This document shows, piece by piece, positions 766 to 38,091 of a stretch of 38,091 nucleotides of DNA. This stretch comes from a virus: the IMG/VR virus record IMGVR_UViG_3300035099_000586; one strand, written 5' to 3'. The number at the start of each line of letters is the position of its first letter. The first letter of the stretch is position 1. A program made the position numbers and the translations under genes. The notes beneath the pieces were generated by a model. That model searched no databases. It saw nothing but the letters and a program-made list of their open reading frames with translations, and was not told the DNA's origin.

Positions 766-779
766 TGGTAGCCCGGGAG
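766..779. repeat. attL core of the provirus (TGGTAGCCCGGGAG)
   Basis: Exact 14-bp direct repeat with 37966-37979, 31 bp beyond the integrase stop. Confidence 0.9.
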
Positions 780-8402: not shown

Positions 8403-8420
8403 TCATATATATTTTTAAAG
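8403..8420 (-). promoter_or_regulatory. Probable TATA box for a leaderless transcript of the 855-aa gene
   Basis: TTTAAAAATATATA about 20-35 nt upstream of the GTG start at 8384; no RBS visible. Confidence 0.45.
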
Positions 8421-11603: not shown

Positions 11604-11619
11604 TCGAAGCCTACCCCCT

Positions 11620-12259: not shown

Positions 12260-12265
12260 CTTGTT

Positions 12266-15363: not shown

Positions 15364-15544
15364 TCATCTCCATTGTGGCTATACGGTTTCTGATAGCTGT
15401 ATTGACATCTTCAAGCACGATGTCCTGCATCCACTTGGGAAGCTTGAGAATCCGAACTCCAAGCGTTTCCCACATCTTCAACCATTTCTTTCGCAAGTCA
15501 GCCTCTCGCCCAAAATTCTCCAAGATTTTCACTTCAACACTCAA
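15332..15544 (-). CDS. Small hypothetical protein in the tail module
   Basis: TTG at 15544 has GGAGG upstream; the track start at 15589 overlaps the tail gene. Confidence 0.6.
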   Translation of the reverse strand: MSVEVKILENFGREADLRKKWLKMWETLGVRILKLPKWMQDIVLEDVNTAIRNRIATMEMIENANREHRA

Positions 15545-15560
15545 TTCAGAAGCCTCCATC

Positions 15561-16430
15561 CTAACTGATGTAAACGTCTCTGGAAACAAACGAAGCCTTC
15601 AAAGCGACAAGGTCTTCGATTCGTGTTGGAGTCGCCACTTTCTCCCATTTGCAATACTTGAAAAGAGCGCTGGCTGTTCCCCCTAAGCCGAATTTGAGGC
15701 TGAATTCACTGTCGTTGACTACGTCGTCGTATTCTTGTTTGCTCTCAAACTCGAAGGTTAACTCGCCTATCAGGTTGCGGTGGCGTGCTGGAAGATACTT
15801 TAGCAGATAGCCTTCTTCGCTACGGATTACTGGCACTGGCTTGAGGTTGTTTTCGATTGTAAATTTCCAGTCTGTCACTCTTTCGAGTGCGGTTAAGCCT
15901 GAGCCGTCACCCGCTCCTCTTTGAATATAGCTTTCATTGTAAGAAACCGCTCCCGCGTAGTCTGCGTAGGTGGCTCCTGTTATTTTTGAGGTCCCTATTT
16001 CAACAGTTTGCCCAATAAGCTCGGCTGTAGCCTTTACGATGTCTTCTATGCTGCATTCTACGCTTAGTTTGTGTATTCTGCAGCCTTTGTAGAGTAGGCT
16101 TATTATGTCGGTTGCCGAGGCAAACAAGCCTTTGTAATACAGCACTTGAAGGCTTAAACTGTTTAGCGTTTGAGCATGTTGAATAAAAGATATGGGTGCA
16201 TCGCTCGATAAGACATGCAGAATCTTTAGCGTTGGCTTTCGCAGTCCCTTCTTTAAGGCTTGAAGGTCTCTGGAGCCAACGCCTCGCAATTTGAGTAGGC
16301 TTGGGTCTAATGCTGGTTCGATGTCTTCGCTGTTTATGCCAAGCATTGACGGGTTTGTTGGTGTCTGACCGTAGACTGATTCTTGAACGAAGTAGGCACG
16401 GCATTCATGCGCTCCATAAGTTTCTGGCAT
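15561..16430 (-). CDS. Major tail (tube) protein
   Basis: YFVQESVYGQTP, LYKGCRIHKLSVECS, FTIENNL...LIGELTFEF patterns; position after the tail terminator. Confidence 0.75.
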   Translation of the reverse strand: MPETYGAHECRAYFVQESVYGQTPTNPSMLGINSEDIEPALDPSLLKLRGVGSRDLQALKKGLRKPTLKILHVLSSDAPISFIQHAQTLNSLSLQVLYYKGLFASATDIISLLYKGCRIHKLSVECSIEDIVKATAELIGQTVEIGTSKITGATYADYAGAVSYNESYIQRGAGDGSGLTALERVTDWKFTIENNLKPVPVIRSEEGYLLKYLPARHRNLIGELTFEFESKQEYDDVVNDSEFSLKFGLGGTASALFKYCKWEKVATPTRIEDLVALKASFVSRDVYIS

Positions 16431-16432
16431 CT

Positions 16433-17419
16433 TTAGAAAACGCCTCCAACATCTTCAAAGCACCATGATTTGAGCGTAAACTCGGTTCTGTAAATGAAGG
16501 GCTTAGTATCCACTCGGTCGGCGTCTCGGAAACTGACAATGTCCAAGTATGTTATGCCGTTGACGGTGACCGTGCAACATGCATAGTCGCAGTATAAGAT
16601 GGCTGATGTCATTCCATCGCTTGGATTCGTTGTTCTAGCTAGAAGCCATACGTACTGCTCATCATCGATGTAATCCGTCAAGTTTGAGGTTAACGTAATG
16701 GTTACGGTCTCGTCTGCTTCGCCAGTCCCGTAATGAGCATTTTGCCAAGCGCCAGCAACATGGTTCCAAACTTTTACAGTGACGCCGAATCCAACAGGAG
16801 CAGAACCGTAGCCCTCAAAAACCAAAACAATCTGCTTGACAGCTTTTTCTCGGCTTTCAATCTTGAATCGGAAAAGCATGAGAGCATATTCGCCGTTGAT
16901 ATTGTGAGATTTAGAGTGTCTCTGGTCATCGCTGTACCAAAGTTTCTGATACTCCAAGCTTGTTAACTCATTCCAGCTTGCATGTTCTGGTGGAAGCTCT
17001 GAGGCTGCGCCTGTTTGGAACGCCTTGTGTGGGTCGCCTTCTGGATAGCCTAAACCAGCAAAGTTGTATTCTGTCGCGTTGGGTTTGTTGCGATTTTGTC
17101 TTATGACGCGGTTTATTTCTTCAACAGTCTTATTTCTGATCAGCTTGCCGTTGTCAGATGAACCTTGCTTGTCAGTAGCCCATACGTTAACTCGTAGAGA
17201 ACCTAAACGTCTGCGGATTCGTCCAGACATTTCGATTTTTGCGTCTCTGCTTTCTACGAGACCTATGGTTATTTGTCCCTCATAGTTTTTGAAAAGTTCT
17301 CTGTCATACCATTCTTGGCTTACGCGAATGCTTGCGATTGAATTGTCTTCTTTGACTACTCGGATGTTCTTCTGCAAAAGCCTAACAACTGTTGCTGTTG
17401 GATCTTCCGACTCGCTCAT
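16433..17419 (-). CDS. Tail terminator/completion protein with an inserted beta-sandwich domain
   Basis: gp17-like termini (QITIG...LRVNVWA...EEINRVI; FRDADRV...YRTEFTLKSW) flank an insert of about 190 aa ending YCDYACCTV. Confidence 0.6.
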   Translation of the reverse strand: MSESEDPTATVVRLLQKNIRVVKEDNSIASIRVSQEWYDRELFKNYEGQITIGLVESRDAKIEMSGRIRRRLGSLRVNVWATDKQGSSDNGKLIRNKTVEEINRVIRQNRNKPNATEYNFAGLGYPEGDPHKAFQTGAASELPPEHASWNELTSLEYQKLWYSDDQRHSKSHNINGEYALMLFRFKIESREKAVKQIVLVFEGYGSAPVGFGVTVKVWNHVAGAWQNAHYGTGEADETVTITLTSNLTDYIDDEQYVWLLARTTNPSDGMTSAILYCDYACCTVTVNGITYLDIVSFRDADRVDTKPFIYRTEFTLKSWCFEDVGGVF

Positions 17420-18810
17420 TGTCCGAGAAGCCTCCTGCAGTATGCTTTGAAGTAGATTGTTTCGCCTCGGAAATCGAAAGTTTGAAGGTCCAGAACCTCG
17501 TAGTCTGTTCCTTTTCTGCGGATTTTGTCATGATGTCTGATGGGAGCAAAGACGTGGATGGTTATGTAGTCGTTTAGGATGTAGCCAGGTTCTATGAGGG
17601 TTTCTTCTGCTCTTGCTGGTGAGACTATGGCTTTTATGTCTATGTCTTCGCCGTAGCTGGTTTGTTCTGAGGCTTCACGGATCTGGTATAGTGTGAGGTT
17701 TTCTCCGTTTGAGCGAAGGATCTGCTTGAAACGTGTTGTTGGTTCCTCGTAGTTTAGATAGAGCAGAGAAAGCCAGCATACGGTTGCCATCGCCTTCTTG
17801 TTTTCCACATAGCTGTAGTCTGCGTGTTTGGCGCCCCAGAACATAAACTCGTCTTGGTGTTTGTCGATGATTTTCATGCTGAATTCAAAGCTTGGCTTAT
17901 CATGAGCCTTGCGGATTTTCCAGAGGATTCCGCTTGTAACCGCATCATAATAGTCGCAGGCTGCGAATCGGCTGGTTACGTCTATGTAGCCAGCCCAACA
18001 GATAGCATGATTGTAAGCTGGATATTGAGCACTGGCCCTGATTGAGTTAATGAAGTTGTAAACTTTTTGGCACGTGAGGCTCCAGCCTTCGTATTCATAC
18101 AAGCCAAGCAAGGCATAAGCGAAGGGGTCATCGTAAATCTCGTTTTCGCTTAGACCGATTCTGTGCCACTCTTCATCTGCGGGGTCGTAATACAGCCAGA
18201 GGTTTTCGATTCCTTGCCTGAGAAAGTTGGCAGCCTTGTTCATTATGTCCTCATACGTGGATGCGTTGGCTGTGTCGTATTTTTCAGCAAGCATCTTCAA
18301 ACCTATAAGCCCATAGAGACATTCAACATCCATTTGCAGAAGCCAAGCGTCTGCTATTGTGACGGCTCTTGCGAAACCACCATAGGCTTGCTGATCCTGC
18401 ATGGTTTTGAGAAACGTGGCTCCAGCAAGCTTGACAGCATTCAGATAATCCTCATCATCTGTCACGTCGTAGGCTCGTAGAAGCGACGGGATGACTCGGC
18501 AAGCGTCAACACTGTAATAGTAGGTGCTTGTTTCGTTGCTCTTGAACCCGCCATAAGCTTTCTTGGCTGGGTCTGTGCATTGCTGGGTTAGAATCCAGTC
18601 GGCGAGATTCACGATTTTGTTGTAGATGCCTGTTTTTTGGTTTTCAAACTGCTTACTGTTATAGGCTTCAGAGAGGAAGTCAATGGCGAAGGCTGCGGCA
18701 AAGGCTGCTCTTCCCCAAGCTGGGTCTGGAACGTCTGGCGGAATCACGTAAACGTAAGGCGCATAATCCATTATGAATTGACAGTAGGCTTCAGGCACTG
18801 TTCCCATCAA
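17416..18810 (-). CDS. Alpha/alpha-toroid (six-hairpin glycosidase/QW-repeat-like) domain fused to a head-closure (SPP1 gp16-like) domain
   Basis: Repeats LADWILTQQ...AYGGF and ATFLKTMQ...AYGGF; the last ~105 aa (IKAIVSP...ITIHV...DKIRRKGTDYEVL...YFKAYCRR) are stopper-like; lies between the adaptor and the terminator. Confidence 0.65.
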   Translation of the reverse strand: MMGTVPEAYCQFIMDYAPYVYVIPPDVPDPAWGRAAFAAAFAIDFLSEAYNSKQFENQKTGIYNKIVNLADWILTQQCTDPAKKAYGGFKSNETSTYYYSVDACRVIPSLLRAYDVTDDEDYLNAVKLAGATFLKTMQDQQAYGGFARAVTIADAWLLQMDVECLYGLIGLKMLAEKYDTANASTYEDIMNKAANFLRQGIENLWLYYDPADEEWHRIGLSENEIYDDPFAYALLGLYEYEGWSLTCQKVYNFINSIRASAQYPAYNHAICWAGYIDVTSRFAACDYYDAVTSGILWKIRKAHDKPSFEFSMKIIDKHQDEFMFWGAKHADYSYVENKKAMATVCWLSLLYLNYEEPTTRFKQILRSNGENLTLYQIREASEQTSYGEDIDIKAIVSPARAEETLIEPGYILNDYITIHVFAPIRHHDKIRRKGTDYEVLDLQTFDFRGETIYFKAYCRRLLGQ

Positions 18811-19160
18811 ACACTCCCCACATAAGGCAGTTTAAGACTACGCAAGATTCGCTCTAACTCAGATTGCAGCACATCCAACGGTGGAGCCTTGCTTAGAACG
18901 CTGACATTCTGGTCGCCTATGGAGAAACTTAAGCCAACTGCTGAACCACCAGTAAGATAACAAATAGCATAGATGGCAGCAAGAACCGTTATGAACTCTT
19001 TTTCGGCGTCTGAGCAATCGCTATAGTCTATTTCTTTGCCGATTTCAAGTTCAAGCGTGACTTCTGCCCGCTTAATCATCTTCAGAATCTTATCATCAGG
19101 TATATCCGCTGAACTGACGTTTATAACATCTCGAACATCATCAGCAGACACGTCTACCAA
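18807..19160 (-). CDS. Head-tail connector/adaptor (gp6/gp15-like)
   Basis: VSADDVRDVI...IPDDKILKMIKRAE helical signature; first neck gene. Confidence 0.75.
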   Translation of the reverse strand: MVDVSADDVRDVINVSSADIPDDKILKMIKRAEVTLELEIGKEIDYSDCSDAEKEFITVLAAIYAICYLTGGSAVGLSFSIGDQNVSVLSKAPPLDVLQSELERILRSLKLPYVGSV

Positions 19161-19226
19161 CGGCTTTAGACCTCAAATAGCTCTAAATTCAAAATAAAAT
19201 GGGAAAAACGGTAAACATAAGGAATC

Positions 19227-19997
19227 TTGCTGAAAAATAAGCATGAAAAACAAGTGATTCAAACAGAAACCGTAAGACTTGGATTTGGAAATCTTAACAT
19301 ACTTGTCTTTTTCAACAATTGTCCTAATGTGAAAAAAGTTAAAGGCTTAACGAGTGTTCTTGTAAAATTGGTTGAGAATTTGCCACGAAGAAGCAAGAAG
19401 GCACTGGCAGTTGAAGCTTGCATAAAACACTTTTTGAAAGATTACAGACAAAATTCTCATCTGGACGAGAACTATGGCGGAGCTTATTATTGGAATGAAC
19501 GAGATGTGCAATGGGCATTGTATAGTCATCTTAGGAAAAGGACAGTATCTCGTTCCATTGGATCGGAATGGTGTGTTCATGCAGAAGGCAGTATAGAGAG
19601 ACCTAAGTACGTGAGGACAGAGAAATGGCCGCGAACACGACGTGCGGATCTTGTCGTGATTGATCATAATAAGTTCAAAAAGGCATGGCGAAATGAAACA
19701 GATTTTCCACCTTATGAGGCAATGATTGAGATCAAGATGATATTGCCTGGTTGGGGAAGAACGTTTTACGAAGATGGAGTAAGGGAAGATATTAGAAAAC
19801 TCGAAGCTTGTCTCAAGAGTAGCATTACTAGAAATGCATTCTTCATTCTTCTCGATGCACTTGACAGAAGGCGGATTCCCTATTTTCAGGACGAACTGGC
19901 TAAAATGGAAAAAGATTCTAGGCTAGTAATATACCATTGGCCAGATTCCAGAAGAGGAATAGACTCGATCAAGGAAGCTCCATTTCGGAGATATTAG
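19227..19997 (+). CDS. PD-(D/E)xK nuclease-fold moron, antisense to the late operon (start uncertain)
   Basis: NERDVQWALY...VHAE...RADLVVID...MIEIK...DIRKL; AT-richer than its flanks. Confidence 0.65.
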   Translation: MLKNKHEKQVIQTETVRLGFGNLNILVFFNNCPNVKKVKGLTSVLVKLVENLPRRSKKALAVEACIKHFLKDYRQNSHLDENYGGAYYWNERDVQWALYSHLRKRTVSRSIGSEWCVHAEGSIERPKYVRTEKWPRTRRADLVVIDHNKFKKAWRNETDFPPYEAMIEIKMILPGWGRTFYEDGVREDIRKLEACLKSSITRNAFFILLDALDRRRIPYFQDELAKMEKDSRLVIYHWPDSRRGIDSIKEAPFRRY

Positions 19998-26464: not shown

Positions 26465-26507
26465 GTAGTCAGTTATATGGTTATATACTTCTTAGGTAGT
26501 CAGTTAT
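26465..26507. promoter_or_regulatory. Late-operon promoter bracketed by 12-bp direct repeats
   Basis: GTAGTCAGTTAT at 26465-26476 and 26496-26507 with a TATA-like GTATATAA (minus strand) between them. Confidence 0.6.
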
Positions 26508-26521
26508 TTTTGGAGAAAGTG

Positions 26522-26641
26522 TTGCCTAGCCTTTCTGTTTACATTAGGCAAGCAAACTATGAGAAAATACGAAAAGTGGCAGAAAAGAACGGCGCCACAA
26601 TAGGACAAATCATAAACAAGCTAATAGAAGAGAGGCTTTAA
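26522..26641 (+). CDS. Ribbon-helix-helix (CopG/Arc-like) regulator, 39 aa; absent from the ORF track
   Basis: GGAG RBS then TTG; (M)PSLSVYIRQANYEKIRKVAEKNGATIGQIINKLIEERL*. Confidence 0.75.
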   Translation: MPSLSVYIRQANYEKIRKVAEKNGATIGQIINKLIEERL

Positions 26642-26791: not shown

Positions 26792-27868
26792 GTGAGTTTG
26801 ACGGCCATTTCTCTCTTCACAGGTGCTATGGGGCTTGACCTTGGCTTCGAAAAGAAAGGCTTCGAAATACGCGCTGCTGTGGATAATCATCCAGCTGTTT
26901 TTGATACTATTCGCGCAAATCGTCCACTCATACCAATAATCAACGAAGACATAAGACACGTCTCAGCTCATGCTATTCTCAAAAAAGCCGGTCTGCGGAA
27001 AACAGAGCCAACTGTTGTTATTGGTGGACCGCCTTGTCAACCTTTCTCGACGGCAGGAAGACGGCTTTCATTATGTGACGAGAGAGGCGCACTTGTCTTC
27101 GAATTCATTAGAATAGTAAGGCAGATTAAGCCCATGTTCTTTGTCTTTGAGAATGTGCCAGGCCTACGATCAGCAACACTCAAGCATATTTCTTTTTATG
27201 AAAGGGCAGAGAAAAAACCACATGAAATACAGGAAGAATCTAGGCTAGGAAAGGCTTTCGCTCTTCTCCTCAAAAAGTTTAGGAGAACTGGATACAGACT
27301 AACGGTTGAAGTTTTGAATGCTGCCGACTATGGTGCTCCACAAAAACGTAGACGATTATTTATTATGGGGTCTCGCGATGGGCAACTATTGGACATAAGA
27401 GAACGGAAGCGTGGTTGCACTACCCTCAGAGACGCTCTCAAAGGACTAGATGATACTGACCCCGAGTTTTTACCTTTCCCCCCTTGGGGAGCATATCTTA
27501 AGTATGTCCCTCCAGGCGGTGATTGGCGGGATCTACCGCCTAAAATACAGAAGGAAGCGATGGGAAGAGCTTTCTTTTCTCAAGGTGGACGTACAGGATT
27601 TTTTAGAAGGCTTCATTGGGATAGACCGGTGCCAACTTTAGTAAGTTCTCCGATTAGGAAAGCTACGTGCCTTGCGCACCCAGATGAAATTCGACCGTTA
27701 AGCATCAAGGAATATGCTGCCATTCAGGGTTTTCCCAAATCTTGGAAATTCAGCGGGTCGACCAAGGAAAAATACCAAATGATAGGCAATGCTGTGCCTT
27801 TGCATCTCTCCACGGTTGTAAGTAAAATCATCAGGTCTGCCGCGATTGATGGGGAAGTTAGCCGATGA
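26792..27868 (+). CDS. C5-cytosine DNA methyltransferase
   Basis: Motif I SLFTGAMG, IV GGPPCQPFS, VI FENVPGL, VIII QKRRRLF, IX/X RPLSIKE...QMIGNAVP. Confidence 0.95.
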   Translation: MSLTAISLFTGAMGLDLGFEKKGFEIRAAVDNHPAVFDTIRANRPLIPIINEDIRHVSAHAILKKAGLRKTEPTVVIGGPPCQPFSTAGRRLSLCDERGALVFEFIRIVRQIKPMFFVFENVPGLRSATLKHISFYERAEKKPHEIQEESRLGKAFALLLKKFRRTGYRLTVEVLNAADYGAPQKRRRLFIMGSRDGQLLDIRERKRGCTTLRDALKGLDDTDPEFLPFPPWGAYLKYVPPGGDWRDLPPKIQKEAMGRAFFSQGGRTGFFRRLHWDRPVPTLVSSPIRKATCLAHPDEIRPLSIKEYAAIQGFPKSWKFSGSTKEKYQMIGNAVPLHLSTVVSKIIRSAAIDGEVSR

Positions 27869-28560
27869 TTAAATATGATGACCAAAAAATACTAGATGCT
27901 GTGGCAGCTACAAGAAAAGGAGATTTCCAACGCCTTTTATTGGAGTGGGCTAAGAAGCACCTCAGGGATTTTCCATGGAGAAAGGATCCAACACCTTTCG
28001 GAACCTTGGTTGCCGAAGTCTTATTGAGAAGAACCACCGCTTCTGCAGTGCTTCGGATTTATCAGTCCTTCATGAAAGAGTACAGTCATCCTCAGAAAAT
28101 CGCAGCGGCTGAAGAAACGAAGTTAGAATCAACACTTTCGACAATCGGATATCATAAACAGAGAACAAGAATACTCAAGGCTATCGCAAAATACTTGGTT
28201 GAAAGATTTGAAGGCACTGTTCCTTGTTCAAAGGAATTATTGTTGGAAATTCCCCACGTCGGCTCCTATACCGCGGGGGCGGTCTTGTCACTTGGATGTG
28301 GTGAACCTTCCGCTATGGTAGACACGAACGTGGAAAGAATCTATGGCAGAGTTTTCTTGTTACATTTACCAAAGAGACGACGAAAGCATCTCATTGAGCG
28401 TATCGCCTCTATGTATGTGCCACTTGACAAGCACCAGACATACAACTTTGCTTTATTGGACTTGTCGGCTCTTATTTGCACTTATGGAATTCCTAGATGT
28501 GTAAAATGCCCATTGAAAGGATTATGCGACTATTTCTCTCAAGGTCTACCACGCAGATAA
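27865..28560 (+). CDS. mig: MIG-type T/U:G mismatch DNA glycosylase (HhH-GPD, 4Fe-4S)
   Basis: EVLLRRTTA (MIG-type Arg pair, versus MutY LQQT), HhH IPHVGSYTA with Tyr, VDTNVER, CTYGIPRCVKCPLKGLC. Confidence 0.8.
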   Translation: MIKYDDQKILDAVAATRKGDFQRLLLEWAKKHLRDFPWRKDPTPFGTLVAEVLLRRTTASAVLRIYQSFMKEYSHPQKIAAAEETKLESTLSTIGYHKQRTRILKAIAKYLVERFEGTVPCSKELLLEIPHVGSYTAGAVLSLGCGEPSAMVDTNVERIYGRVFLLHLPKRRRKHLIERIASMYVPLDKHQTYNFALLDLSALICTYGIPRCVKCPLKGLCDYFSQGLPRR

Positions 28561-28622
28561 AGCATTAATCTAAGCAAGAATTGAGCTCGCGAGTTATCGA
28601 TAATAGAAAGAATAATTGAATT

Positions 28623-30299
28623 CTAATCAAGCCTACTTATCGCTTCTCGAGGAATTCTGACTTCTCCTCTCATTGAGAGGATAAACAGCAGTGCAGAGGT
28701 CATTTCGTCCAATAAAACTTGCTTCTGGCGTGACCTTAAGTGCAACCACCTTCTTTCAAGCGCGTATCCTCCGTTTTTCCATTCAGGAGAGAACAAATCC
28801 CAAGCGGTATATCCTAATGTTGAAAGACTTCGAGAGACATTCAGAATCTTGCTCCTTTCTCTGCTTGAAAAAGGAATCAATACGACTTTTTCTTCGACGT
28901 GCACGGTCAATTTTGCGGCTGCTTCCTTCTCTTTTTCTGAAAACTCGTGCATTTTCCTAAACATGTCGAGTGGTACTTTTGACCGGTAAAGCTCTAACAA
29001 ATGAGGATTGATGCGAAAAAAGCGCCGAATTTGTTTTGACCACACTTTCCAAGTCCAATGGCTTGCATTATGTTTTAATGCGTCAGGTAAAGACAATTCA
29101 TAAGGAAATCCGTTCTCCTCCATTGCCAGAAAAATCTCTGTGGGCCAAGATTCTTCTTTATAGTACACCCAATCCTTAGTCTTTATGACGCATCCGGTAT
29201 TCCTGCAAGCCTTATCAACTTGATTCTCGTCCAAAATTCCTTGGATGTAGCCAAGTGACAGTTTTCTATGCGAATTCATGTATGATAAAGCTTCCCACGT
29301 AGCTGGTTCAAAATCGTCTCCAAGCAAACCGAGAAAGGCAATTTCAGGGTAATCTCGTCCCAGCATCCAGACGCCAACTATCAGAATACTTCCCTTGAAA
29401 TCGTTCAGATCCATAGGGTCTTTCAGCTTAGTATCGGTTCGCTGCTTTGGATTATTCAAACTCTCTCTGAATATCTCTGTATTCAAGCGGGCTTTCAAAC
29501 ACCCACTATAATCACTCAGTGTCAAGGCGACCTGGTCAGGTGTCACGCCAAAGCCTGTTGTAGAAGGAATGCAATCCACAGAAGTAGCTCTACATATCAG
29601 AGCGAAGAAAAAACCAAGCCTTAGACCTTCTTCTGTAAAGAAAGGCGTAAAATAGCGAAGGGCTAATCCATTTCCGATAGTTTCTATGTCTTTACATGTC
29701 CTCATAAACGGCTTAAATTGATTCAGATTGATTGGATCATTGTTATGTTTTTTAACTGAACTAACTCTTCGTCCTCTTACGGCGTGGGCACGATTAAAGA
29801 AACTATATAGGTGGACGTTTTCAAGCCTCACTTTATCCAGTCGAGGAATAATTGGATCTGTAGGGATTTCCGCCTCAGTAGTACTAATTGCAATGACATT
29901 GGACCATTGAGGCAACGCAAGGACTAGATCATAGGTAGATTCTCCAAATTCCTTAGACCATCGATCACTCGCCATCATCTGCAAGACTATCGCTTCAACA
30001 GGGTCGTCCATAATAACTCTCGTATTTGCATCTCGCATTTGCGCTAGGATAGCGGTGTTGCCTTTCTCAGAGAGCGCTACAAGAATCCTTAAGGCATGAG
30101 CAACAAGTGAGTCACCCTTTCCAGCCTCAGATTTAAGTCTTCGACGCGATTCTTCTGGGTTTTCGATTAAGTCGTCTATTATGGCGGGCATGCGCTCGCG
30201 AAATTTTTCGTTTCTACATATCGCATCATAGATTTTCATATGCATATAAGGATAAATCGTCAACAGAAATCTGCTTATGGAGGAATCTTTAGAAGGCAT
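28623..30299 (-). CDS. Unknown 558-aa protein, last gene of the drmABC-like operon
   Basis: Overlaps the PLD gene stop; no recognisable catalytic motif; possible OB-like central segment. Confidence 0.75.
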   Translation of the reverse strand: MPSKDSSISRFLLTIYPYMHMKIYDAICRNEKFRERMPAIIDDLIENPEESRRRLKSEAGKGDSLVAHALRILVALSEKGNTAILAQMRDANTRVIMDDPVEAIVLQMMASDRWSKEFGESTYDLVLALPQWSNVIAISTTEAEIPTDPIIPRLDKVRLENVHLYSFFNRAHAVRGRRVSSVKKHNNDPINLNQFKPFMRTCKDIETIGNGLALRYFTPFFTEEGLRLGFFFALICRATSVDCIPSTTGFGVTPDQVALTLSDYSGCLKARLNTEIFRESLNNPKQRTDTKLKDPMDLNDFKGSILIVGVWMLGRDYPEIAFLGLLGDDFEPATWEALSYMNSHRKLSLGYIQGILDENQVDKACRNTGCVIKTKDWVYYKEESWPTEIFLAMEENGFPYELSLPDALKHNASHWTWKVWSKQIRRFFRINPHLLELYRSKVPLDMFRKMHEFSEKEKEAAAKLTVHVEEKVVLIPFSSRERSKILNVSRSLSTLGYTAWDLFSPEWKNGGYALERRWLHLRSRQKQVLLDEMTSALLFILSMRGEVRIPREAISRLD

Positions 30300-31108
30300 T
30301 TGATTCCCTCCATCTTTAGGATCTGATCGAGTAAACTCCGCATTGTTGAGACCAGCCCAGGGTCATCAGTGTATATTCCAATTTCAAGGTTATCTGCTGT
30401 ACTATCTGGTTTCACATTAGCCGAAGTAACAAGAAGAGATCTATCAGAACACCACACTTTAGCATGGGCCAATGTGGTATCCTCGCTTATGAACAAGACT
30501 TTCCCTGACTTGAATCGACTCCTAATGAGAGCCTCTAGCTTTTGAATTTTGAAATTAACTCCACCAGAATATGTTTTGGCTAGGGAGGGTTCACTTGTCA
30601 CAACAATTAACTCAGCGTTCTTAGCATAGATGTCTTTCAAGGCAACTTGCATTATTCCAACGTCAAGATACGGCGTTACAATAATTAGCTTAGTTTCTGC
30701 ATCCTCTGCAACAAGCTTTTGACCCGCTAATGTATGCTCAGTAATATCACCAAAACTCTCTCGGATCTTTTCTACCCACATAGGCGGCACGGTTATACAG
30801 ACTTTAAGTTCAGTTCCTCTATCAATTTTTGGCACGCCAGTGATGGATGTCATGACTTGTGAGTCAACCACAGTCACATATCGTTCAAAAGCAAGACCTG
30901 CGTTGGTGGTGTGCAATTTATGTTCTTCATCTTCACGTATAAAGCCAAATTCCTTTGCTAGCCTTGCGATTGATTCTACTTCAGTCCTTTTGAGATCGGC
31001 ATTGGACGCCAAGGTAGCTTTTAAGTCTTCAAGCGTGGTTTTTCCATTATTAACAGTATGTATGATATCCGCCATGATTCTAAACTTTCTAGAAAGATCG
31101 GCGACCAT
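30275..31108 (-). CDS. drmC: wHTH + single-HKD phospholipase D-family nuclease (DrmC-like)
   Basis: HAKVWCSD (HxKx4D), TSAN, NLEIG; follows the DUF1998 gene. Confidence 0.72.
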   Translation of the reverse strand: MVADLSRKFRIMADIIHTVNNGKTTLEDLKATLASNADLKRTEVESIARLAKEFGFIREDEEHKLHTTNAGLAFERYVTVVDSQVMTSITGVPKIDRGTELKVCITVPPMWVEKIRESFGDITEHTLAGQKLVAEDAETKLIIVTPYLDVGIMQVALKDIYAKNAELIVVTSEPSLAKTYSGGVNFKIQKLEALIRSRFKSGKVLFISEDTTLAHAKVWCSDRSLLVTSANVKPDSTADNLEIGIYTDDPGLVSTMRSLLDQILKMEGIKCLLKIPP

Positions 31109-31120
31109 GACTTCTCTCCT

Positions 31121-32620
31121 TTAGTCAGGCCAGAATACCCCAAGTGCCAAGAGTAATTTTCTGTTGAGTTTTCTGTTAACATTCCCGCAGTTCTTTATGA
31201 AGAGACATTGTTTACAGGCGTTCGAACACTCGCGCGTTCGGCATTCAAGCCTTTGTCGAATGTTCTTAAACATCCTGATGAGACTGTCTTTGTCATTCAT
31301 AAGTGCTGCAAATCCACCATTTCCGCCTTCGTCAGTGTCATAGACGTAGACCCTCCCTCCTTCTTCTGGTTTGAGTACGTCGTATGATCCATGAAATTTC
31401 TCAGGTTCGAACCCTGTGTACATTGGAGCTAGAACCAACAGCGCATGTTTGAGCGAATGCACGGCAACTTCTTTCAGATATTCAGCACTTTGAGTTTCAT
31501 GGCTTTCTTCTTTGAGTTTCTCTATTAAATCATGGAATTCAGGCTTCAACACTAATAAGAAGCCTTGTGTGTCAGTTAGGCGCCCAAGCACATTATTCTC
31601 TTGTCCATCAAGATAGTAACTCGACACTCCGTTGAACTTATTTCCTATTCGAAAACCATAGGTAATCTCAAGAACCCTCAGCCGTGAAAATCTTGACTTT
31701 TCCAAATCCACAACTTTGGGGTTGAACAGCACAGGTTTTATATTTGCTAGTACTTCATTCACCTCATCTATTTCTGGGTCGTTTGTCAGATTATAACTTT
31801 CGACAGCAGATACTTGCAAAGGTACGCTCATTGATTCCCTAGGAAAGTCCATTTTGAACCAATGACTTCCCGTTCTAAAGAGTCGTTCAAGCTTGATCGG
31901 AGCCACTTTGAGTCCTTTGGGGCAATGAGGGTTGTGCCTTCGCAGAGAGTCAACAGGCCTTTGGGGATCCTCCATTTTGAGAGACCCTAGTTTACGAATG
32001 AAGTCGTGAACGCATTTGCCATCAGCGCTTTGTGGATGGGTACACCTATCTCCGGTTTTGCTGTAATAACAGAATATTTGAGCCGTACCCATATTGCGGA
32101 TAATTCCCGTTCCCGGGTCGCCTAGTAGTGCATGAGACATGACTCTAGGAAGTCTTTGAGGTATCCAAACTGGGGCCTGCTGAACTTGGGCTTTCTGGCA
32201 TCTTCTACAAATAGGCAGTCTATCCTTCGGCGGGTATCTAAAATATGATAACTTGTCTAAGGTGCCACAGTTGGGGTCTGAGCAGTAAACCATATCGAGG
32301 GAATCATCGAATCGCAAATCAATCTTTTTGGGAACCGTGACTGTTACTTTTTCCAAATTCGGAACCGTTCTTCCGCTTTCTTCTTGTATTTGCTTTTGAA
32401 GTTTCTGAATGGCTTTGGATAATAATTCTTTTCCAGAAGAGTCAGAGAGTTTCTGCATTACGGATATTGTCAAAGTCATGTCTGGAGAGACTCCACGTAA
32501 GGAAGTCTGCTCAGGTCCTATAACTCGAAAAACAATTCCTTGATATGATGCGAAGGCACCAGGATAGAGGCTTCTTAATGCGTAGGAGAGAGATTTTGTT
32601 GTAACTGTCATCGAGCCCAT
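31121..32620 (-). CDS. drmB: DUF1998/MZB-domain protein (DrmB-like)
   Basis: HSLKHALL, YDTDEGGNG, C-terminal C..EC..AC..CL...C; also N-terminal CSDPNC and CRRC. Confidence 0.8.
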   Translation of the reverse strand: MGSMTVTTKSLSYALRSLYPGAFASYQGIVFRVIGPEQTSLRGVSPDMTLTISVMQKLSDSSGKELLSKAIQKLQKQIQEESGRTVPNLEKVTVTVPKKIDLRFDDSLDMVYCSDPNCGTLDKLSYFRYPPKDRLPICRRCQKAQVQQAPVWIPQRLPRVMSHALLGDPGTGIIRNMGTAQIFCYYSKTGDRCTHPQSADGKCVHDFIRKLGSLKMEDPQRPVDSLRRHNPHCPKGLKVAPIKLERLFRTGSHWFKMDFPRESMSVPLQVSAVESYNLTNDPEIDEVNEVLANIKPVLFNPKVVDLEKSRFSRLRVLEITYGFRIGNKFNGVSSYYLDGQENNVLGRLTDTQGFLLVLKPEFHDLIEKLKEESHETQSAEYLKEVAVHSLKHALLVLAPMYTGFEPEKFHGSYDVLKPEEGGRVYVYDTDEGGNGGFAALMNDKDSLIRMFKNIRQRLECRTRECSNACKQCLFIKNCGNVNRKLNRKLLLALGVFWPD

Positions 32621-35600
32621 AACACCTCCACAACTACTTCACGGTCGGTCGATCTCAAACTTGTTAGTTGATATTTTTCGTTTATTGTATCTCTGAACCT
32701 CTTGAACAGCGTATTTGGTGCCAACTCATTTTTTGACAGATTCACAAGATACTCAACGAATTCCGATAAACAAGGAATGATTTCCTGAGTGAGAATTCCT
32801 TTTTTGCCTAGAGCATTAATGCAGTGCTCTTCAATGTCCTTAAGTTTGGTCGTGATATTCTTGAACATTCTGAAATCGTCTAGATATTCTGAAAAATCGA
32901 CATCTGATATAACGTAGTCAAAGAGTGCTCCTCTAACATGTTTTTTGCTTGCTTCAATATTGTTCCTTGTAATTGGTACGGGTTCGATATGGGCGGTTGG
33001 ATCTCTAAGTGCCTCTCTGGCGTTAGAAAAATAATAGTGATCAATCGGCTTCCAGTTTTGACAAACTGTGATTACTAACGAATCCCTCTTTCTCCCTCCT
33101 CTTCCTATTCTTTGCAGATAGTCATTAAATGAAAAGGGAAAACCATTCACAACAACCACATCAACTCTCCTGAAATCCACACCAACTTCCAAGGTCTGCG
33201 TTGCAAAGATGCAATGGAGTTCATCTCTGTTAAATGCCCGTTCGATTTTTGCTCTACTTTTTCTATCAAAATCAGTCGTGTGCCCATCAATCTTGATGTC
33301 TGGGAGATCGTTGGCCACTGTTCGTCGTGTCAAAGCAATGAGATTATTAGAGGATCGTATCGAGTTTACAAAGGTAATTGTTTGCAAGTATTGATCCCAA
33401 GCTTCGCCTTTCTCCACAAGACGAGTCGGGGGTGTCCCTTTCTTCGACCGCATTTGGACATAGTAGATGGCTCGTCCAATTGTGCTGTCAGTGTTGTAAG
33501 CATAAGGCATTATATAGACATGATAGCGTCGAATCGTCTCGTCTCGGTTTCCCGTCAAGTAAAAGCTTTTTCTTTCTTGGTTGTCTTTCGGAACTAATAG
33601 TACGTCGTTTGGAGGAGCGTCAAAGAAATCCTCAGCGAACTCGACAGGGTTCGAAATCGTCGCCGTCGAGCCTATTCGAATGAATTTTGGCGTTGGCTCA
33701 TTGTGGTATTGCGCACTGTATTTTCGAAGAATTGCTTGCAATCTTGAGATAAAGAAGGAGCAATTTATTCCAAATGTGCCCTTGAACATGTGCACTTCAT
33801 CAAAGACTATAAAACGAGGAATTGTCGGCTGGATTAATGTTATGTTTGAACTTTTGCACTGGTCGTTATCGCATTTTCTTTTTTTCCCTTTCGCTACGTA
33901 TGTCCACCCGCAATCGTTGCAGACGAAAACTGGCCTACCAAAGATAGAATGATTCTGTGGACGCATCATCAAATCCCATATCAATGTGTCTGGGTTGGTA
34001 ATCAGAATGTCTGGTGGATCAGAGTAAACCAATTGTCTATTGCGGACTTTGACAAAGTCTATTACCTCTCCACAGGCGTTACACTTGAGAAGGTTTCCTT
34101 CAGAACGAAGAACTCCGCGTTCGCACTTAGGACAAGACAAAGGTAAATCCCACTCTTCTTCGGTTCCCGGCTCTGGCTCCATCCTCGAGATGTCGCCATG
34201 CAGCAAACCCAACGTTATTTTCTTGTCACCAAGTCTACGGTTAAGATGATACAGGATCTCTATGTACCTATTAGTCTGGTCATTTGCTAGTGCCTTTGTG
34301 GGGTAGAACACCAAAGCTTTTACGCCTTTTATGTCCCTATTATCTATGCAGTATTGGGCGATTGGAACCAAAAATGCTTCAGTCTTTCCTCCTGCTGTTC
34401 TTGCCGAGATTACTATTGTGTCAAGGTCGGTGGGTTTTTTCATGACGCCTAGAATGCAACGAATCGAGGCTGCTTGAAAAAGATAGAAATTCGTAAACCC
34501 AAGGTCTTCCTCGAAGACTGCTTGAAGGTTGGGGTTAAGCCCAAGTTCCGAACAGAGCTCACTGGGACGAGGTCCTGGCGACATCTGAGGCACATCTTCT
34601 TCAAACATTGCATAATCTCGAAAAACCAGCTTACCATCATAGATGTTAGCGGATATTTTTAGTTCTGAGTCATCCATTATACAATTAACTGTATTTGCTG
34701 CATCGCGTTCGCAATATGGATATTCAGAAGAGTGTATGTCCTCTTCCATTGTAACTTCCATTAGATACCCGTATCTGTTGCCACTCGGATTATTCCTCAG
34801 CCCAGGAATTGTAAAAAGCCTAGGCGAATAAGAGTCAAACAGTTTATCGTCTTTGATTAGCCGTAATACGGCATTCTTTTCCGTCTCCAAACTCCCAGAT
34901 TTCTCATCACGTTTTCTTTCAGGTATGACCGAACGAGGAGATTTGGGGCTTTCATTTCTGAGTTCAGCGTTTATTATTATTCTATCATGCTCTCTTGTTA
35001 TTGTTCTTGTGTATTTAATCTTGTACTTTTGTCTCATAAGTCGAGGCTTGGATTCCTCATAGAACAGGAACACATCACTCTGATCTTCGAGGAAAACTGA
35101 GATTTGTTGTTTATTGGCATCTAAGGTAACATCGACTTGCTTTTCTCCTAATTCGCTCAATTTGTCGTCCACTTTGAGCTGTATCTTCGGTTGCTCTGAA
35201 AGTAAGGTAGTGGTTATGATCAACTCATATTTTTTGAATGCATGAAGTAACTCATCTAGTGTGAGACAATATTCCTTTGGTCGGTCATCCAACGTGGGCC
35301 CCAGGTCTCCATCACAGCCTTCGCGCATTCTAAGGAAGAAAACTATGTAGGTTACCAGTGGCGATTTATCAACGGGTTTGACCGTCACTTGATAACTCAT
35401 TTTGTTCGGCACAAATTTCCAGTCTGGGTATTGAGCGTCGCCCTCATCGCTTTCAGTCGGTTGGGTATATTCATCTTCTTCGATGTCTGAAGGCTCGTCA
35501 GACTCAGTCGCGGTCTTCGGACCGAGCACTCCAATATGTGGTAAACCAGCCATTGTACGAGAACGCAGGTGATCAATTAAGTCCTGAGCCTCAATTTTAG

Positions 35601-35628
35601 CCCAGTCTTCAGGCAAAGGCATAGGCAA
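32608..35628 (-). CDS. drmA: SF2 DEAH-box helicase (DrmA-like)
   Basis: ARTAGGKT, YPTKALANDQ, TNPD, DEVH, STAT, ATQTLEVGVD, QRIGRGGR; Zn-ribbon inserts; long N-terminal extension. Confidence 0.82.
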   Translation of the reverse strand: MPMPLPEDWAKIEAQDLIDHLRSRTMAGLPHIGVLGPKTATESDEPSDIEEDEYTQPTESDEGDAQYPDWKFVPNKMSYQVTVKPVDKSPLVTYIVFFLRMREGCDGDLGPTLDDRPKEYCLTLDELLHAFKKYELIITTTLLSEQPKIQLKVDDKLSELGEKQVDVTLDANKQQISVFLEDQSDVFLFYEESKPRLMRQKYKIKYTRTITREHDRIIINAELRNESPKSPRSVIPERKRDEKSGSLETEKNAVLRLIKDDKLFDSYSPRLFTIPGLRNNPSGNRYGYLMEVTMEEDIHSSEYPYCERDAANTVNCIMDDSELKISANIYDGKLVFRDYAMFEEDVPQMSPGPRPSELCSELGLNPNLQAVFEEDLGFTNFYLFQAASIRCILGVMKKPTDLDTIVISARTAGGKTEAFLVPIAQYCIDNRDIKGVKALVFYPTKALANDQTNRYIEILYHLNRRLGDKKITLGLLHGDISRMEPEPGTEEEWDLPLSCPKCERGVLRSEGNLLKCNACGEVIDFVKVRNRQLVYSDPPDILITNPDTLIWDLMMRPQNHSIFGRPVFVCNDCGWTYVAKGKKRKCDNDQCKSSNITLIQPTIPRFIVFDEVHMFKGTFGINCSFFISRLQAILRKYSAQYHNEPTPKFIRIGSTATISNPVEFAEDFFDAPPNDVLLVPKDNQERKSFYLTGNRDETIRRYHVYIMPYAYNTDSTIGRAIYYVQMRSKKGTPPTRLVEKGEAWDQYLQTITFVNSIRSSNNLIALTRRTVANDLPDIKIDGHTTDFDRKSRAKIERAFNRDELHCIFATQTLEVGVDFRRVDVVVVNGFPFSFNDYLQRIGRGGRKRDSLVITVCQNWKPIDHYYFSNAREALRDPTAHIEPVPITRNNIEASKKHVRGALFDYVISDVDFSEYLDDFRMFKNITTKLKDIEEHCINALGKKGILTQEIIPCLSEFVEYLVNLSKNELAPNTLFKRFRDTINEKYQLTSLRSTDREVVVEVLWAR

Positions 35629-35775
35629 ACCTCAATTACACAAATACATGATAAATAAGACTAATTATAAGTTTCTCTAGATAGAAGTTGGCTAACCTTA
35701 AGCATCGAAAATTCGATATATTATCACATTTTGTTTAACTGAATGTTGTTTTGGACTTATACATTGTTAAACCTC

Positions 35776-35795
35776 ATGCTTCTGCATGGAAGCAT
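35776..35795. terminator. Hairpin (terminator or operator) between the nuclease gene and drmA
   Basis: ATGCTTC-tgcatg-GAAGCAT, 10 nt downstream of the 35806 stop. Confidence 0.35.
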
Positions 35796-35805
35796 TTTGA
35801 TCAGT

Positions 35806-36312
35806 CTAGTAGCCGATGATCAGGATTCCTTTCAGTGGCAAATTGAGCCTCCCACTTGCGTAAAGCGTATCGAAATGAGTTAGAACAATTTCAAAGTCTG
35901 GTCTCTTTCTATAAGTCCTACGTACACCTATGACTAGGTAATTGACATTATGCATCATACAGGCTTCAAATAGATCTTTGAGGAACTGATAGTTAGTCAC
36001 GGCTCTCCCTGCTTCTACTTCGAGAACCGTGCCAGTGTCCTCATGAAAAGCATCCACTTGAAACGATTTTTCCATCTGCCCGTTTCGTCCAAACAAAACA
36101 GGTACTTTGATTTTGTCGTCAATCCTGCTGCCTCTTTCCACTTTGAAATTCATGTCAAGCAGGCTTTTCTTCAGGACTAAAAGCACTTCATTGCTTGTCA
36201 GTTTGTGTTTCTGCGAGTCTATAGCTTCACTATGTTGCTTGAAGATATTGACCACTTTGAGCAGGTGTTCAGGTATAGAATCCGATTTTGGAAAATATTG
36301 CCAGCTTATCAT
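35806..36312 (-). CDS. Restriction endonuclease-like protein (BamHI/BglII-type D...ExE centre), 168 aa
   Basis: FQVDAF...VLEVEAGRAVTNYQFLKDL; ATG at 36312 follows GGGTGA. Confidence 0.6.
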   Translation of the reverse strand: MISWQYFPKSDSIPEHLLKVVNIFKQHSEAIDSQKHKLTSNEVLLVLKKSLLDMNFKVERGSRIDDKIKVPVLFGRNGQMEKSFQVDAFHEDTGTVLEVEAGRAVTNYQFLKDLFEACMMHNVNYLVIGVRRTYRKRPDFEIVLTHFDTLYASGRLNLPLKGILIIGY

Positions 36313-36316
36313 AATC

Positions 36317-36616
36317 TCACCCTTTTTTCGTTGTTTTTCTGCCCGATCCTTCAAGTCTTTTCCCCATTAAGGAAGCTAATCTCAGACGCATTGCTTCTTG
36401 TATAAAGTCTTCCTTTGTTGCATAACCTAATTCGAGGTTCTCCTTAATGAAACTCTCAACTTCTTTCAGAAGATCCGCCGACAATATTACAGACTTGCTT
36501 ATCATAACTTCAACTGCGTCAGAATAAGTCTTCGTCTTGCCAGACTCTGCCATCAATCTTCCAACAACTGCAGTCAACCTCGCATGAGCTTCATCTGAAA
36601 TTCTAAGTGTCTTCAA
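36317..36616 (-). CDS. Double ribbon-helix-helix regulator
   Basis: KTLRISDEAHARL...TYSDAVE and SVILSADLLKEV...TKEDFIQEAMR. Confidence 0.7.
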   Translation of the reverse strand: MKTLRISDEAHARLTAVVGRLMAESGKTKTYSDAVEVMISKSVILSADLLKEVESFIKENLELGYATKEDFIQEAMRLRLASLMGKRLEGSGRKTTKKG

Positions 36617-36624
36617 CCTAACCC

Positions 36625-37434
36625 CTATGCTACATAATCCAGCTTCTTCAAATAATCTTTCTCATAAAAACCGTCATTCAACATTTTCCTAATCTCTTCT
36701 AGCATGCGTTCGTTTCTTTCTGCCCAATCAGGATAACAACAAACCACCTCAACAGCATTCGGATGCGAAGCATCCCCAACCTTAACAACAACACCATTAC
36801 TCTTAGCAAACAAGTCAATCACAAGCCTAGGCAACCGCTGCTCCACCTCAAACACGTAATGCGCACCCTTAAACCGCACACCAGCCAAAACCCCCTCCAA
36901 AACCTTAACATCCGTAATCAAACCCGTAAAACTAAACCCATTACAAACAAGCTGATACGCTCTACCCAGATTAGCAGGCTTCCGCACATACAAATTAACC
37001 CTTCCAGTCTCAAACCACTGAAGCCTACCCAGCTTATCCCGCCACAACAACCACCTATTCCGCGCTTTACTAGCCACCCAGCCAGCATCCAAAGCCCGAC
37101 GCCTATCAACACCAGCAGGCACATAGCACCATCCACGCCACGCGTGAATTGAACACTTTGAACCCCGCTCATTCCTATAGTGATACTTCCAGCGGGTTCT
37201 AAGATTCCTAATATAATGCCCATGCTCTCGGTATGATAAACGAAGAATTTGACATAGCGATTTAGCTGTAAGTAACGGATTTTTATCCAAGTTTTTAAAA
37301 ACTCGCTGGGCTATGCTATCACTGTCACCACTGTCATGGTTATAGTGTAAATCAGAACCAGAGCTCTTGAGACGCCGAGCCAAAAACAAGTCACCTATTC
37401 TCTCACAATGGAATTCAACACACATTTTTGACAA
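36625..37434 (-). CDS. Unknown 269-aa protein with an HTH-like N-terminal segment (replication/transcription candidate)
   Basis: RVFKNLDKNPLLTAKSLCQILRL HTH-like segment; largest gene of the right-end early operon. Confidence 0.7.
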   Translation of the reverse strand: MSKMCVEFHCERIGDLFLARRLKSSGSDLHYNHDSGDSDSIAQRVFKNLDKNPLLTAKSLCQILRLSYREHGHYIRNLRTRWKYHYRNERGSKCSIHAWRGWCYVPAGVDRRRALDAGWVASKARNRWLLWRDKLGRLQWFETGRVNLYVRKPANLGRAYQLVCNGFSFTGLITDVKVLEGVLAGVRFKGAHYVFEVEQRLPRLVIDLFAKSNGVVVKVGDASHPNAVEVVCCYPDWAERNERMLEEIRKMLNDGFYEKDYLKKLDYVA

Positions 37435-37613
37435 ACCAAAACCATCCCAACCCCATGCTCCAAAAGAAACAAATACGAAGGCTTAAGTTCAAGCCATACT
37501 GGTTTCCCACATTTACCACAGACCGCTTTCTTTACAGGATATCGTGGAGGACCAAGAGGCCACTCATCAACCAAAAAGACCATCAACTCGGCACACTTCC
37601 TGCTTTCACTCAT
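37395..37613 (-). CDS. Zinc-ribbon protein
   Basis: CGKC and CQKC; GAAGGTGA RBS. Confidence 0.65.
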   Translation of the reverse strand: MSESRKCAELMVFLVDEWPLGPPRYPVKKAVCGKCGKPVWLELKPSYLFLLEHGVGMVLVCQKCVLNSIVRE

Positions 37614-37684
37614 TCACGCTCACCTTCACACTCCACAGCGATCGTTTTTATGACGAGTTGCCCAAAGCAGCATAGACAGTCTTT

Positions 37685-37870
37685 TCAAGGCCATCTCCCC
37701 TCCAACAACTTACCAACCAAACAGTCCACCGTACCACGCTTCAAACAATTCTCCCGTCTACAACCCACAATTTGCAACAAATCAGCCTGACGACGACCAA
37801 CAATCCTTCCTTTCACACACACCTGCTGCTGCACAGCACAACACCAACAAGAAACCTCAACCTCACTCAT
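37685..37870 (-). CDS. Small Cys-rich protein
   Basis: CWCC...C...C...C...C; GAGG before ATG. Confidence 0.55.
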   Translation of the reverse strand: MSEVEVSCWCCAVQQQVCVKGRIVGRRQADLLQIVGCRRENCLKRGTVDCLVGKLLEGRWP

Positions 37871-37965
37871 ACCTCAACGCAAACCCCCATAAGCCATCGA
37901 AAACAAAAAAGAGGGAAGATGAGCGAAACCCCTCGGCAAATCAGTATAAATTAAACGCTAGAGTA

Positions 37966-37979
37966 TGGTAGCCCGGGAG
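37966..37979. repeat. attR core of the provirus (TGGTAGCCCGGGAG)
   Basis: Exact repeat of 766-779, flanked by the perfect 10-bp inverted repeat GTATAAATTA (37944-37953)/TAATTTATAC (37997-38006). Confidence 0.9.
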
Positions 37980-38091
37980 TTACCGCTCCCAAGTTGTAAT
38001 TTATACCAAAATTCCCTCCTTTTGTTTGTTTTAAACCGTTCAGGTGTGGGATGTCCTGCAGCCTATTTCGCAGGGATCTGCCAACGACGAG

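Follow-up and report, generated by a model that had tools for sequence, protein, structure and literature searches.

A predicted DISARM-like defence module with an OB-fold-type partner protein and a linked T:G repair gene in a tailed provirus of a Bathyarchaeia-type archaeon

Introduction

Do a DISARM-type helicase, a zinc-binding protein and a nuclease that stand beside a protein without any recognised family, a methylase and a repair enzyme form one defence system, and if so, of which kind? This question is raised by the virus record IMGVR_UViG_3300035099_000586, a stretch of 38,091 nucleotides that we analysed in full and call the window below, in which positions 26792-36354 hold seven genes of this sort. 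The original prediction for this DNA had described a virus-borne variant of class II DISARM with non-standard parts. The open reading frames (ORFs) lie at the coordinates that it gave, and all of its gene identities hold except those of two flanking ribbon-helix-helix (RHH) genes.

DISARM is widespread, and its mechanism is unclear beyond the DrmA-DrmB core of class I. Class II, as Ofir et al. reportedly defined it in 2018, has the composition drmE-drmA-drmB-drmC-drmMII. Class I comprises drmD, drmMI, drmA, drmB and drmC; a DrmAB structure is available (7S9V/7S9W), and this core loads on unmethylated DNA with single-stranded ends (PMC9142583). In addition, a survey of YprA helicases found many uncharacterised classes in the DISARM-like clade (10.1101/2025.09.15.676423), and the system in the window would be one of them.

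From sequence comparison we conclude that the window carries a real, conserved and undescribed DISARM-like variant, whose function and mechanism we infer. What appears to be new is a six-gene set in which a protein here called X replaces DrmE and in which a T:G repair component is both obligatory and interchangeable. With a probability of roughly 0.7, we read the locus as a complete, conserved defence module of the DISARM-like, restriction-modification (RM) type, carried as cargo by an integrated tailed virus whose host is a Bathyarchaeia-type archaeon.

Results

Gene content of the module

On the minus strand the module is transcribed in the order DrmA, DrmB, DrmC and X, and this row converges on a methylase and a glycosylase gene on the plus strand. 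DrmA (32608..35628, minus strand) is a predicted DExH helicase of the YprA family, matched over residues 374-907 by the PADLOC model DrmA PDLC02570 (E 1e-76), and the motifs DEVH and QRIGRGGR (motif VI) are found in it. The original prediction had proposed to compare hidden Markov model scores of this protein with those of DpdJ and Druantia, and the comparison favours DrmA, with 257 bits for PDLC02570 versus at most 94 bits for SngC, BrxH, DpdJ and DruE (PADLOC). Its solved relatives are YprA (6ZNP, E 2.5e-19) and DrmA (7S9V, E 1.5e-9), the latter over RecA2 only. The N-terminal 370 residues match no family, yet they are kept at full length in all loci, and the protein has Cys-rich inserts; its helicase core contains CxxC pairs at 499, 516 and 570, which align with Cys pairs of the DrmA encoded on plasmid pHV1 of Haloferax volcanii.

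DrmB (31121..32620, minus strand) is a DUF1998/MZB zinc-binding protein by its matches to Pfam MZB (2.6e-8, above the cut-off) and PADLOC DrmB PDLC02580 (9.4e-16); its gene is separate from that of the helicase and overlaps drmA by 13 nucleotides (nt). DrmC (30275..31108, minus strand) is a predicted PLD-family nuclease with a single HKD motif, matched by PLDc_2 (1.1e-7; 32.2 bits versus a cut-off of 27), by NCBIfam DISARM_DrmC_I (1.8e-7) and by 16 PADLOC DrmC models, the best of them at 1e-6. The motif HxKx4Dx6SxN is intact at residue 215 and invariant across an alignment of 9 homologues. The drmC gene overlaps the start of the next gene by 25 nt, and this gene encodes X (28623..30299, minus strand), a protein of 558 residues that matches no Pfam, NCBIfam or PADLOC family even when thresholds are relaxed.

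The convergent pair begins with a C5 cytosine DNA methyltransferase (26792..27868, plus strand) that is DrmMII-like (Pfam PF00145 DNA_methylase, 1.6e-59; PADLOC DrmMII PDLC02650, 2.8e-108) and contains all of the motifs PCQ, ENV, QxRxR and GNAV. The helicase, PLD and methylase motifs of the module are all intact. We take the methylase to be the probable self-marking component. Its nearest solved relative, matching in the catalytic half only, is M.HaeIII, which recognises GGCC. As a separate observation, GGCC is strongly depleted in the window (1-38091), with 24 occurrences observed versus 98 expected under a Markov model (z -10.6), as is CCGG with 15 versus 50 expected; GGNCC, CCWGG and GATC are likewise low there. 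The GGCC/CCGG depletion may reflect restriction avoidance or, alternatively, decay through deamination of 5-methylcytosine (5mC) at the methylase target.

The second gene of the pair encodes a MIG-type HhH-GPD glycosylase (27865..28560, plus strand; HhH-GPD 1.4e-15). Its best solved relative is Mig.MthI (1KEA, E 1.2e-37), with residues 15-225 aligned to 7-217 of 1KEA over the full length, and the 4Fe-4S cluster motif Cx6Cx2Cx5C is located at residues 205-221. The two genes overlap by 4 nt (ATGA), an arrangement by which the glycosylase is, as far as gene structure tells, translationally coupled to the methylase. MutY scores nearly equal to MIG against this protein; a specificity for T:G mismatches is suggested by its linkage to the methylase and by the Vsr substitution described below. 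Taken together, the predicted identities fit the wider DISARM-like clade, not class II or class I by definition.

The gene set recurs in diverged loci

We examined X in its genomic context in six neighbourhood listings, in two loci from genomes and in eleven from metagenomes, and tabulated these contexts by tblastn. The original prediction had made its reading depend on the recurrence of the gene set elsewhere, and the set does recur: each of the 16 loci that extend over both X and the methylase side encodes DrmA-DrmB-DrmC-X, a C5 methylase, and MIG or Vsr. X is accompanied by DrmA and DrmB in all loci of sufficient length. The gene after drmC had been suspected of being a component in its own right, and X indeed directly follows DrmC in 18/18 loci covering its upstream side, with stop and start codons that usually overlap. 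Identity to the window ranges from 22 to 92% for X; for DrmA it is 59-96% over the full length in the main group and 37% in locus L016, and for DrmB 62-97% in the main group and 38% in L016. Given such wide ranges, the module is not one recent clone.

The repair gene is MIG in 14 of these 16 loci and Vsr in the other two. The two most distant groups (L006 and L016, together with the cut locus L017) have no MIG, and a Vsr endonuclease adjoins the methylase instead. That two unrelated enzymes occupy the same slot is our strongest argument for a T:G repair role selected within the system, and it agrees with the proposal that the cassette has built-in protection against 5mC deamination: the methylase is always accompanied by a T:G repair enzyme. 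We also considered X as the partner of a restriction glycosylase, or MIG as the restriction effector, and rejected both, given that in the distant loci MIG gives way to Vsr, an endonuclease with an unrelated fold.

The coupling of MIG to a methylase had been listed among the non-standard features, and here the prediction went too far. Mig.MthI stands with M.MthTI on the Methanothermobacter plasmid pFV1, and Dcm with Vsr in bacteria, each a 5mC methylase genetically coupled to a T:G mismatch corrector as in the window. What differs is the setting, since the pair in the window is embedded in a DISARM-like helicase-nuclease system and not, as on pFV1, in a simple type II RM system; moreover, MIG and Vsr are interchangeable across the family of the window, unlike in pFV1 or Dcm-Vsr.

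Across loci the module is shuffled in three units, namely DrmA-DrmB, DrmC-X, and the methylase with MIG or Vsr. The first two are collinear in some loci and divergent in others, and the place of the methylase varies: it lies behind DrmB in L002 and L006 and behind X or MIG in L016 and L030, and it is convergent in the window. An opposite-strand methylase, offered earlier as a hallmark, is therefore one of several arrangements, the gene lying elsewhere on the same strand after DrmB or X. L016 (322-10899) is the most remote module; it has a 1038-residue X with a Cys-rich C-terminal extension of 580 residues, Vsr rather than MIG, and a 56-aa (amino acid) ORF between X and the methylase. In L002 (11812-12432), the MIG homologue spans 199 residues by tblastn versus 140 aa in the called gene, which may be truncated or have another start.

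On chromosomes the module is found within defence islands or mobile elements, among DarT-Macro, McrBC, Eco47II-type RM, HEPN, PIN, Schlafen-AlbA, AbiGi, integrase and D5 primase genes. X was found in 2/401 genomes of its class, and this patchy distribution together with the defence and mobile neighbours points to a mobile defence system, not a housekeeping one. The X-bearing genomes are labelled Bathyarchaeota/Bathyarchaeia, and one X homologue comes from a Jordarchaeaceae metagenome-assembled genome (MAG). No match to DrmA turned up in a phage collection, nor in IMG/VR when exact peptide patterns of it were searched; plasmids yielded only distant haloarchaeal and bacterial helicases, one of which is a giant Druantia-like pair.

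The nuclease and the boundaries of the system

Upstream of DrmA lies the seventh gene (35806..36312, minus strand), which encodes a nuclease-like protein of the PD-(D/E)xK type with a BglII/BamHI fold. Its ORF is open to 36354 (182 aa), and its homologues begin at the Met at 36312 (168 aa). The predicted fold is that of type II restriction enzymes, with acidic D...ExE residues. The original prediction counted this extra endonuclease as part of the system, a view that the comparison does not bear out: it is present in 4/14 loci reaching both module ends (the window, L020, L001 and L002), at differing positions, and its own family, large and independent, counts about 2000 clusters, roughly 50 times the size of the X family, with members in unrelated contexts too. 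No Pfam, NCBIfam or PADLOC model covers this family; the best 120 of its roughly 2000 clusters are 60-99% identical, and members are named 'hypothetical protein'. In two contexts elsewhere the nuclease is found near an N6/N4 methylase and Cas1, or near a C5 methylase, an HhH-GPD protein and an SNF2 helicase, and an obligatory adjacent methylase was not seen in the contexts examined. We regard it as an optional neighbour, perhaps a conventional restriction enzyme that shares the methylase.

One could go further and split the locus into two side-by-side systems, a type II RM system (C5 methylase, MIG and nuclease) and a methylation-blind DrmABC-X. The restriction enzyme fold of the small protein with its D...ExE residues, the location of the methylase-MIG pair on the opposite strand in the window, and the Eco47II- and EcoO109I-like nucleases that flank the methylase in L001 all speak for such a split, as does the match to 1KEA, MIG beside a 5mC RM system being familiar from pFV1. 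Yet the small nuclease is missing from most loci, whereas the methylase and the repair gene are kept in 16/16; its family, some fifty times that of X, lives in unrelated contexts; and in L002, L006, L016 and L030 the methylase directly adjoins DrmB or X in the same orientation. We therefore consider two separate systems unlikely, though this is the best placed of the alternatives. The L001 locus itself (886-19624, on a 2.1-Mb contig of a Bathyarchaeota MAG) is a dense defence island with DarT-Macro and McrBC, where a 494-aa unknown gene is divergent from drmA.

X is a putative OB-fold protein distinct in sequence from DrmE

X represents a small family of 29 close clusters, with 41 representatives among 1.84 billion proteins. 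A confident AlphaFold model built from 28 homologues (predicted local distance difference test, pLDDT, 83; predicted template modelling score, pTM, 0.79) has an N-terminal helical domain, two beta-barrels at residues ~94-190 and ~195-345, and a helical C-terminal third. With Foldseek the barrels match the tandem oligonucleotide/oligosaccharide-binding (OB) domains of HIN-200 and RPA70 at E 1e-6, and a fold search of the Atlas returned archaeal SSB/RPA clusters; a feature search of the ESM Atlas gave one match of 0.81 to an unnamed cluster, which is uninformative. On this model X would comprise two OB folds of the RPA/Stn1/HIN type and is a putative DNA-binding protein. The core that it shares with longer forms covers residues ~30-460, and the C-terminus is variable, being short and helical, an Alba domain (P0180) or a Cys-rich extension of ~580 residues.

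By analogy, X stands where other DISARM systems have their class-defining fifth protein, DrmE. For reference we used a genuine DrmE, found on pHV1 of H. volcanii (PADLOC PDLC02636, E 1e-102; the family carries Pfam PF24957) and not found on pHV4 or pHV3 of the same species. In strain DS2 the pHV1 locus (L035, 34493-46760) has the order methylase-DrmE-DrmA-DrmB-DrmC, followed by an HNH endonuclease, with ISH elements on its flanks; it is canonical class II DISARM and a tractable reference. The module in the window resembles class II in its split DrmA and DrmB, PLD-type DrmC, C5 methylase, and occurrence in defence islands or mobile elements. It differs in having the OB-fold X after DrmC and not DrmE, and in its obligatory MIG or Vsr; its DrmA, DrmB and DrmC also answer to other PADLOC sub-models than those of pHV1, DrmA is 21% identical and shorter (1006 versus 1274 aa), and DrmB has 499 versus 661 aa.

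Could the locus nevertheless be ordinary class II DISARM, with X as a DrmE orthologue that has diverged beyond recognition and moved downstream of drmC? X would then fill the role of the fifth, non-enzymatic-looking component, and the remaining four parts (C5 methylase, DrmA, DrmB and DrmC) are class II parts. Against this, no ORF of the region matched DrmE at E up to 10 (PADLOC) or 1 (Pfam), and no DrmE model matched ten remote X relatives. With hhalign, the X profile gave a probability of 0.14% against the pHV1 DrmE and 0.12% against a 10-member DrmE alignment; the long X relatives gave 0.08% against DrmE versus 99.9% against X. X is also of different length (~560 versus ~830 aa) and position, always after DrmC, whereas DrmE precedes DrmA in pHV1. 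Searches with PDLC02636 of the two X-bearing genomes and of 401 genomes from the same phylum gave no match. By both sequence and profile comparison X is not DrmE, and we place a hidden orthologue second among the alternatives, with a slim chance of being correct. The absence of DrmE thus stands as originally proposed, with PADLOC matches to DrmA, DrmB, DrmC and DrmMII and none to DrmE.

Comparison with class I, Druantia-like and repair systems

The module shares with class I DISARM the DrmA-DrmB helicase core and a PLD-type DrmC. In contrast to class I, it contains neither an SNF2 DrmD nor an N6-adenine methylase: no gene for an SNF2 helicase (DrmD) or an N6-adenine methylase (DrmMI) was found in 26.4-38.1 kb, the lone 'DrmD' match in the region being one at E 0.002 on the 182-aa nuclease-fold protein, and the match to the class I structure is the one confined to RecA2. 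Druantia, ARMADA and Dpd likewise have a helicase of YprA type, DUF1998 and a nuclease associated with them, but theirs is a fused helicase-DUF1998 and the two are separate genes in the window. Searches with Pfam, PADLOC and NCBIfam found no DruH, no BrxHII-like helicase with a PglX methylase and no 7-deazaguanine genes in the region.

It is very improbable that the helicase-DUF1998-PLD-X row is a DNA repair or viral replication module of the MrfA/YprA or Hrq-like kind: a YprA/MrfA repair helicase is the best solved relative of the C-terminal half of the helicase, RPA/Stn1-type OB-fold proteins are replication and repair factors and a repair glycosylase is linked, but the module is patchy (2/401 genomes of the class), is found in defence islands, on mobile elements and in a viral slot of variable content, is missing from related viruses, is obligatorily linked to a modification methylase, has a PADLOC DrmA score far above all others, and has the helicase/DUF1998 split that is consistent only in the DISARM branch (10.1101/2025.09.15.676423).

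The module occupies a variable slot of a provirus

The window belongs to a tailed virus, with genes for an integrase, a large terminase, a tail tube protein, a tail protein and a major capsid protein. A 14-bp direct repeat just outside the integrase gene (811-2163) is a candidate attL (766..779), and its exact copy 37,200 bp away is a candidate attR (37966..37979); several 14-mer repeats are expected by chance, and the att reading rests on position. The DISARM-like cassette lies between both repeats, inside the element. A third near-copy is located at 113-126. The left flank is homologous to a Bathyarchaeia-class genome (L060) as far as 778, and the right flank does not align. An ORF in the left flank is 83% identical to a gene in this genome, which is of the same class as the Bathyarchaeota/Bathyarchaeia MAGs, and the host is probably a Bathyarchaeia-type archaeon. 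Searches of the window for tRNA genes and Rfam families found nothing, hence no tRNA att site, and the window has no terminal repeats.

The original prediction placed the cassette in a cargo slot of an archaeal provirus, and comparison with related viruses confirms this. One IMG/VR contig is identical to the window across X, MIG, methylase, small ORF and head genes, and a 93-98% relative (L020) keeps the full gene order, beginning right of the cassette and running through to the capsid gene; the junctions are the same in both. When we scanned for the head-module protein that adjoins the cassette, 24 related viral contigs were recovered, and the cassette is present only in the twin of the window and not in the other 23. 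In one relative (L040) the slot is almost empty, ~1 kb separating the head gene from the counterpart of the gene on the right of the cassette; in another (L049, 1897-9681) the slot holds two tandem genes resembling radical-SAM/spore photoproduct lyases together with an N6/N4 methylase, and in a third (L038, 2160-5491) AsnC-type helix-turn-helix proteins. The slot is thus variable, relatives carrying other cargo or almost none at the same position.

The two RHH genes said to flank the cassette were not borne out. On the left, between the head module and the methylase, a 54-aa ORF (26477..26641, plus strand) is possibly an RHH-type regulator, its matches being sub-threshold (RepB-RCR_reg 0.018, DUF6290 0.071); it is kept with the cassette in L009 and L020. 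On the right, the 99-aa ORF at 36317-36616 has no family match whatever. Two further probable cargo genes lie beside the terminase at 5817-9878 of the window, one encoding an 855-aa protein in which a Methyltransf_33 (EgtD-like) domain is fused to a HerA/DUF87-type ATPase and the other a 487-aa ABC-ATPase with a weak GNAT match. Both ends of the element are unusually strongly skewed, with a GC skew of +0.36 and an AT skew of -0.44 at 1001-2000, in the integrase gene, and a GC skew of -0.35 in the last 2 kb (36001-38000).

Discussion

Several observations weigh against the interpretation of the locus as one complete DISARM-like module. The matches to DISARM models are weak for two of the core proteins (56 bits for DrmB and 27 bits for DrmC), and the helicase matches PDLC02570, as opposed to PDLC02576 for a canonical class II system, to whose helicase it is only 21% identical; 'DISARM' denotes the wider DISARM-like clade here. 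In L001 the methylase and MIG lie 5 kb off, beside the Eco47II- and EcoO109I-like nucleases, and possibly belong to these. For X, the fold matches bear on the barrels and the C-terminal 200 residues are barely probed; an OB fold by itself proves neither DNA binding nor a function.

On our reading of a single DISARM-like module, we envisage the following mechanism. The methylase would mark resident DNA at a short motif, and DrmA-DrmB, as in class I DISARM, would load on incoming DNA that lacks the mark. The exposed DNA, most likely single-stranded, would be bound by the tandem OB-fold protein X, which is coupled to DrmC and would then position or license the PLD nuclease, the job of DrmE or DrmD in the known classes. 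MIG or Vsr would remove the T of T:G mismatches that arise when 5-methylcytosines made by the system itself are deaminated, limiting the mutational cost, and the BglII/BamHI-like nuclease would be an occasional add-on. When expressed from the provirus, the module would shield the lysogen, and hence the provirus, from other viruses. Going beyond this, the loci may represent a third, unnamed DISARM class of archaea (Bathyarchaeia and Jordarchaeia) and their viruses, defined by a DrmC-X nuclease module in which X is a sensor of DNA that is unmodified or exposed in single-stranded form and a licensing factor for the PLD nuclease, and in which MIG or Vsr is an obligatory sixth component that bears the mutational cost of marking with 5mC; we put this at slightly less than even odds. 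The YprA-helicase survey describes no OB-fold partner and no repair gene (10.1101/2025.09.15.676423).

That an archaeal virus carries DISARM had been presented as new, and in this respect the literature came first. Tailed proviruses of Woesearchaeales carry class 2 DISARM, and the Bathyarchaeia tailed provirus 2 (BATPV2, DTQN01000007_pro, 38,397 bp) has DrmA and DrmC, which were called auxiliary (PMC11705971); DISARM-II is published for Asgard Freyarchaeia as well (PMC11529989). BATPV2, which we compared by its description only, resembles the element in the window in being an archaeal head-tailed provirus of similar size, with the same host class and with DISARM genes, whereas a full six-gene module, X and a repair partner are not described for it (PMC11705971). 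Because Pfam, NCBIfam and PADLOC lack a model for X, loci of this kind are reported as fragments, such as 'DrmA and DrmC' (PMC11705971).

The list of defence systems borne by archaeal viruses is still short, and the module extends it by a complete example. An OB-type, DNA-binding-like partner welded to the PLD nuclease would give a concrete idea of what the fifth component of such systems may do. Finally, the invariable presence of a T:G repair gene, drawn from two unrelated families, suggests selection to offset the mutagenic cost of marking self DNA with 5mC.

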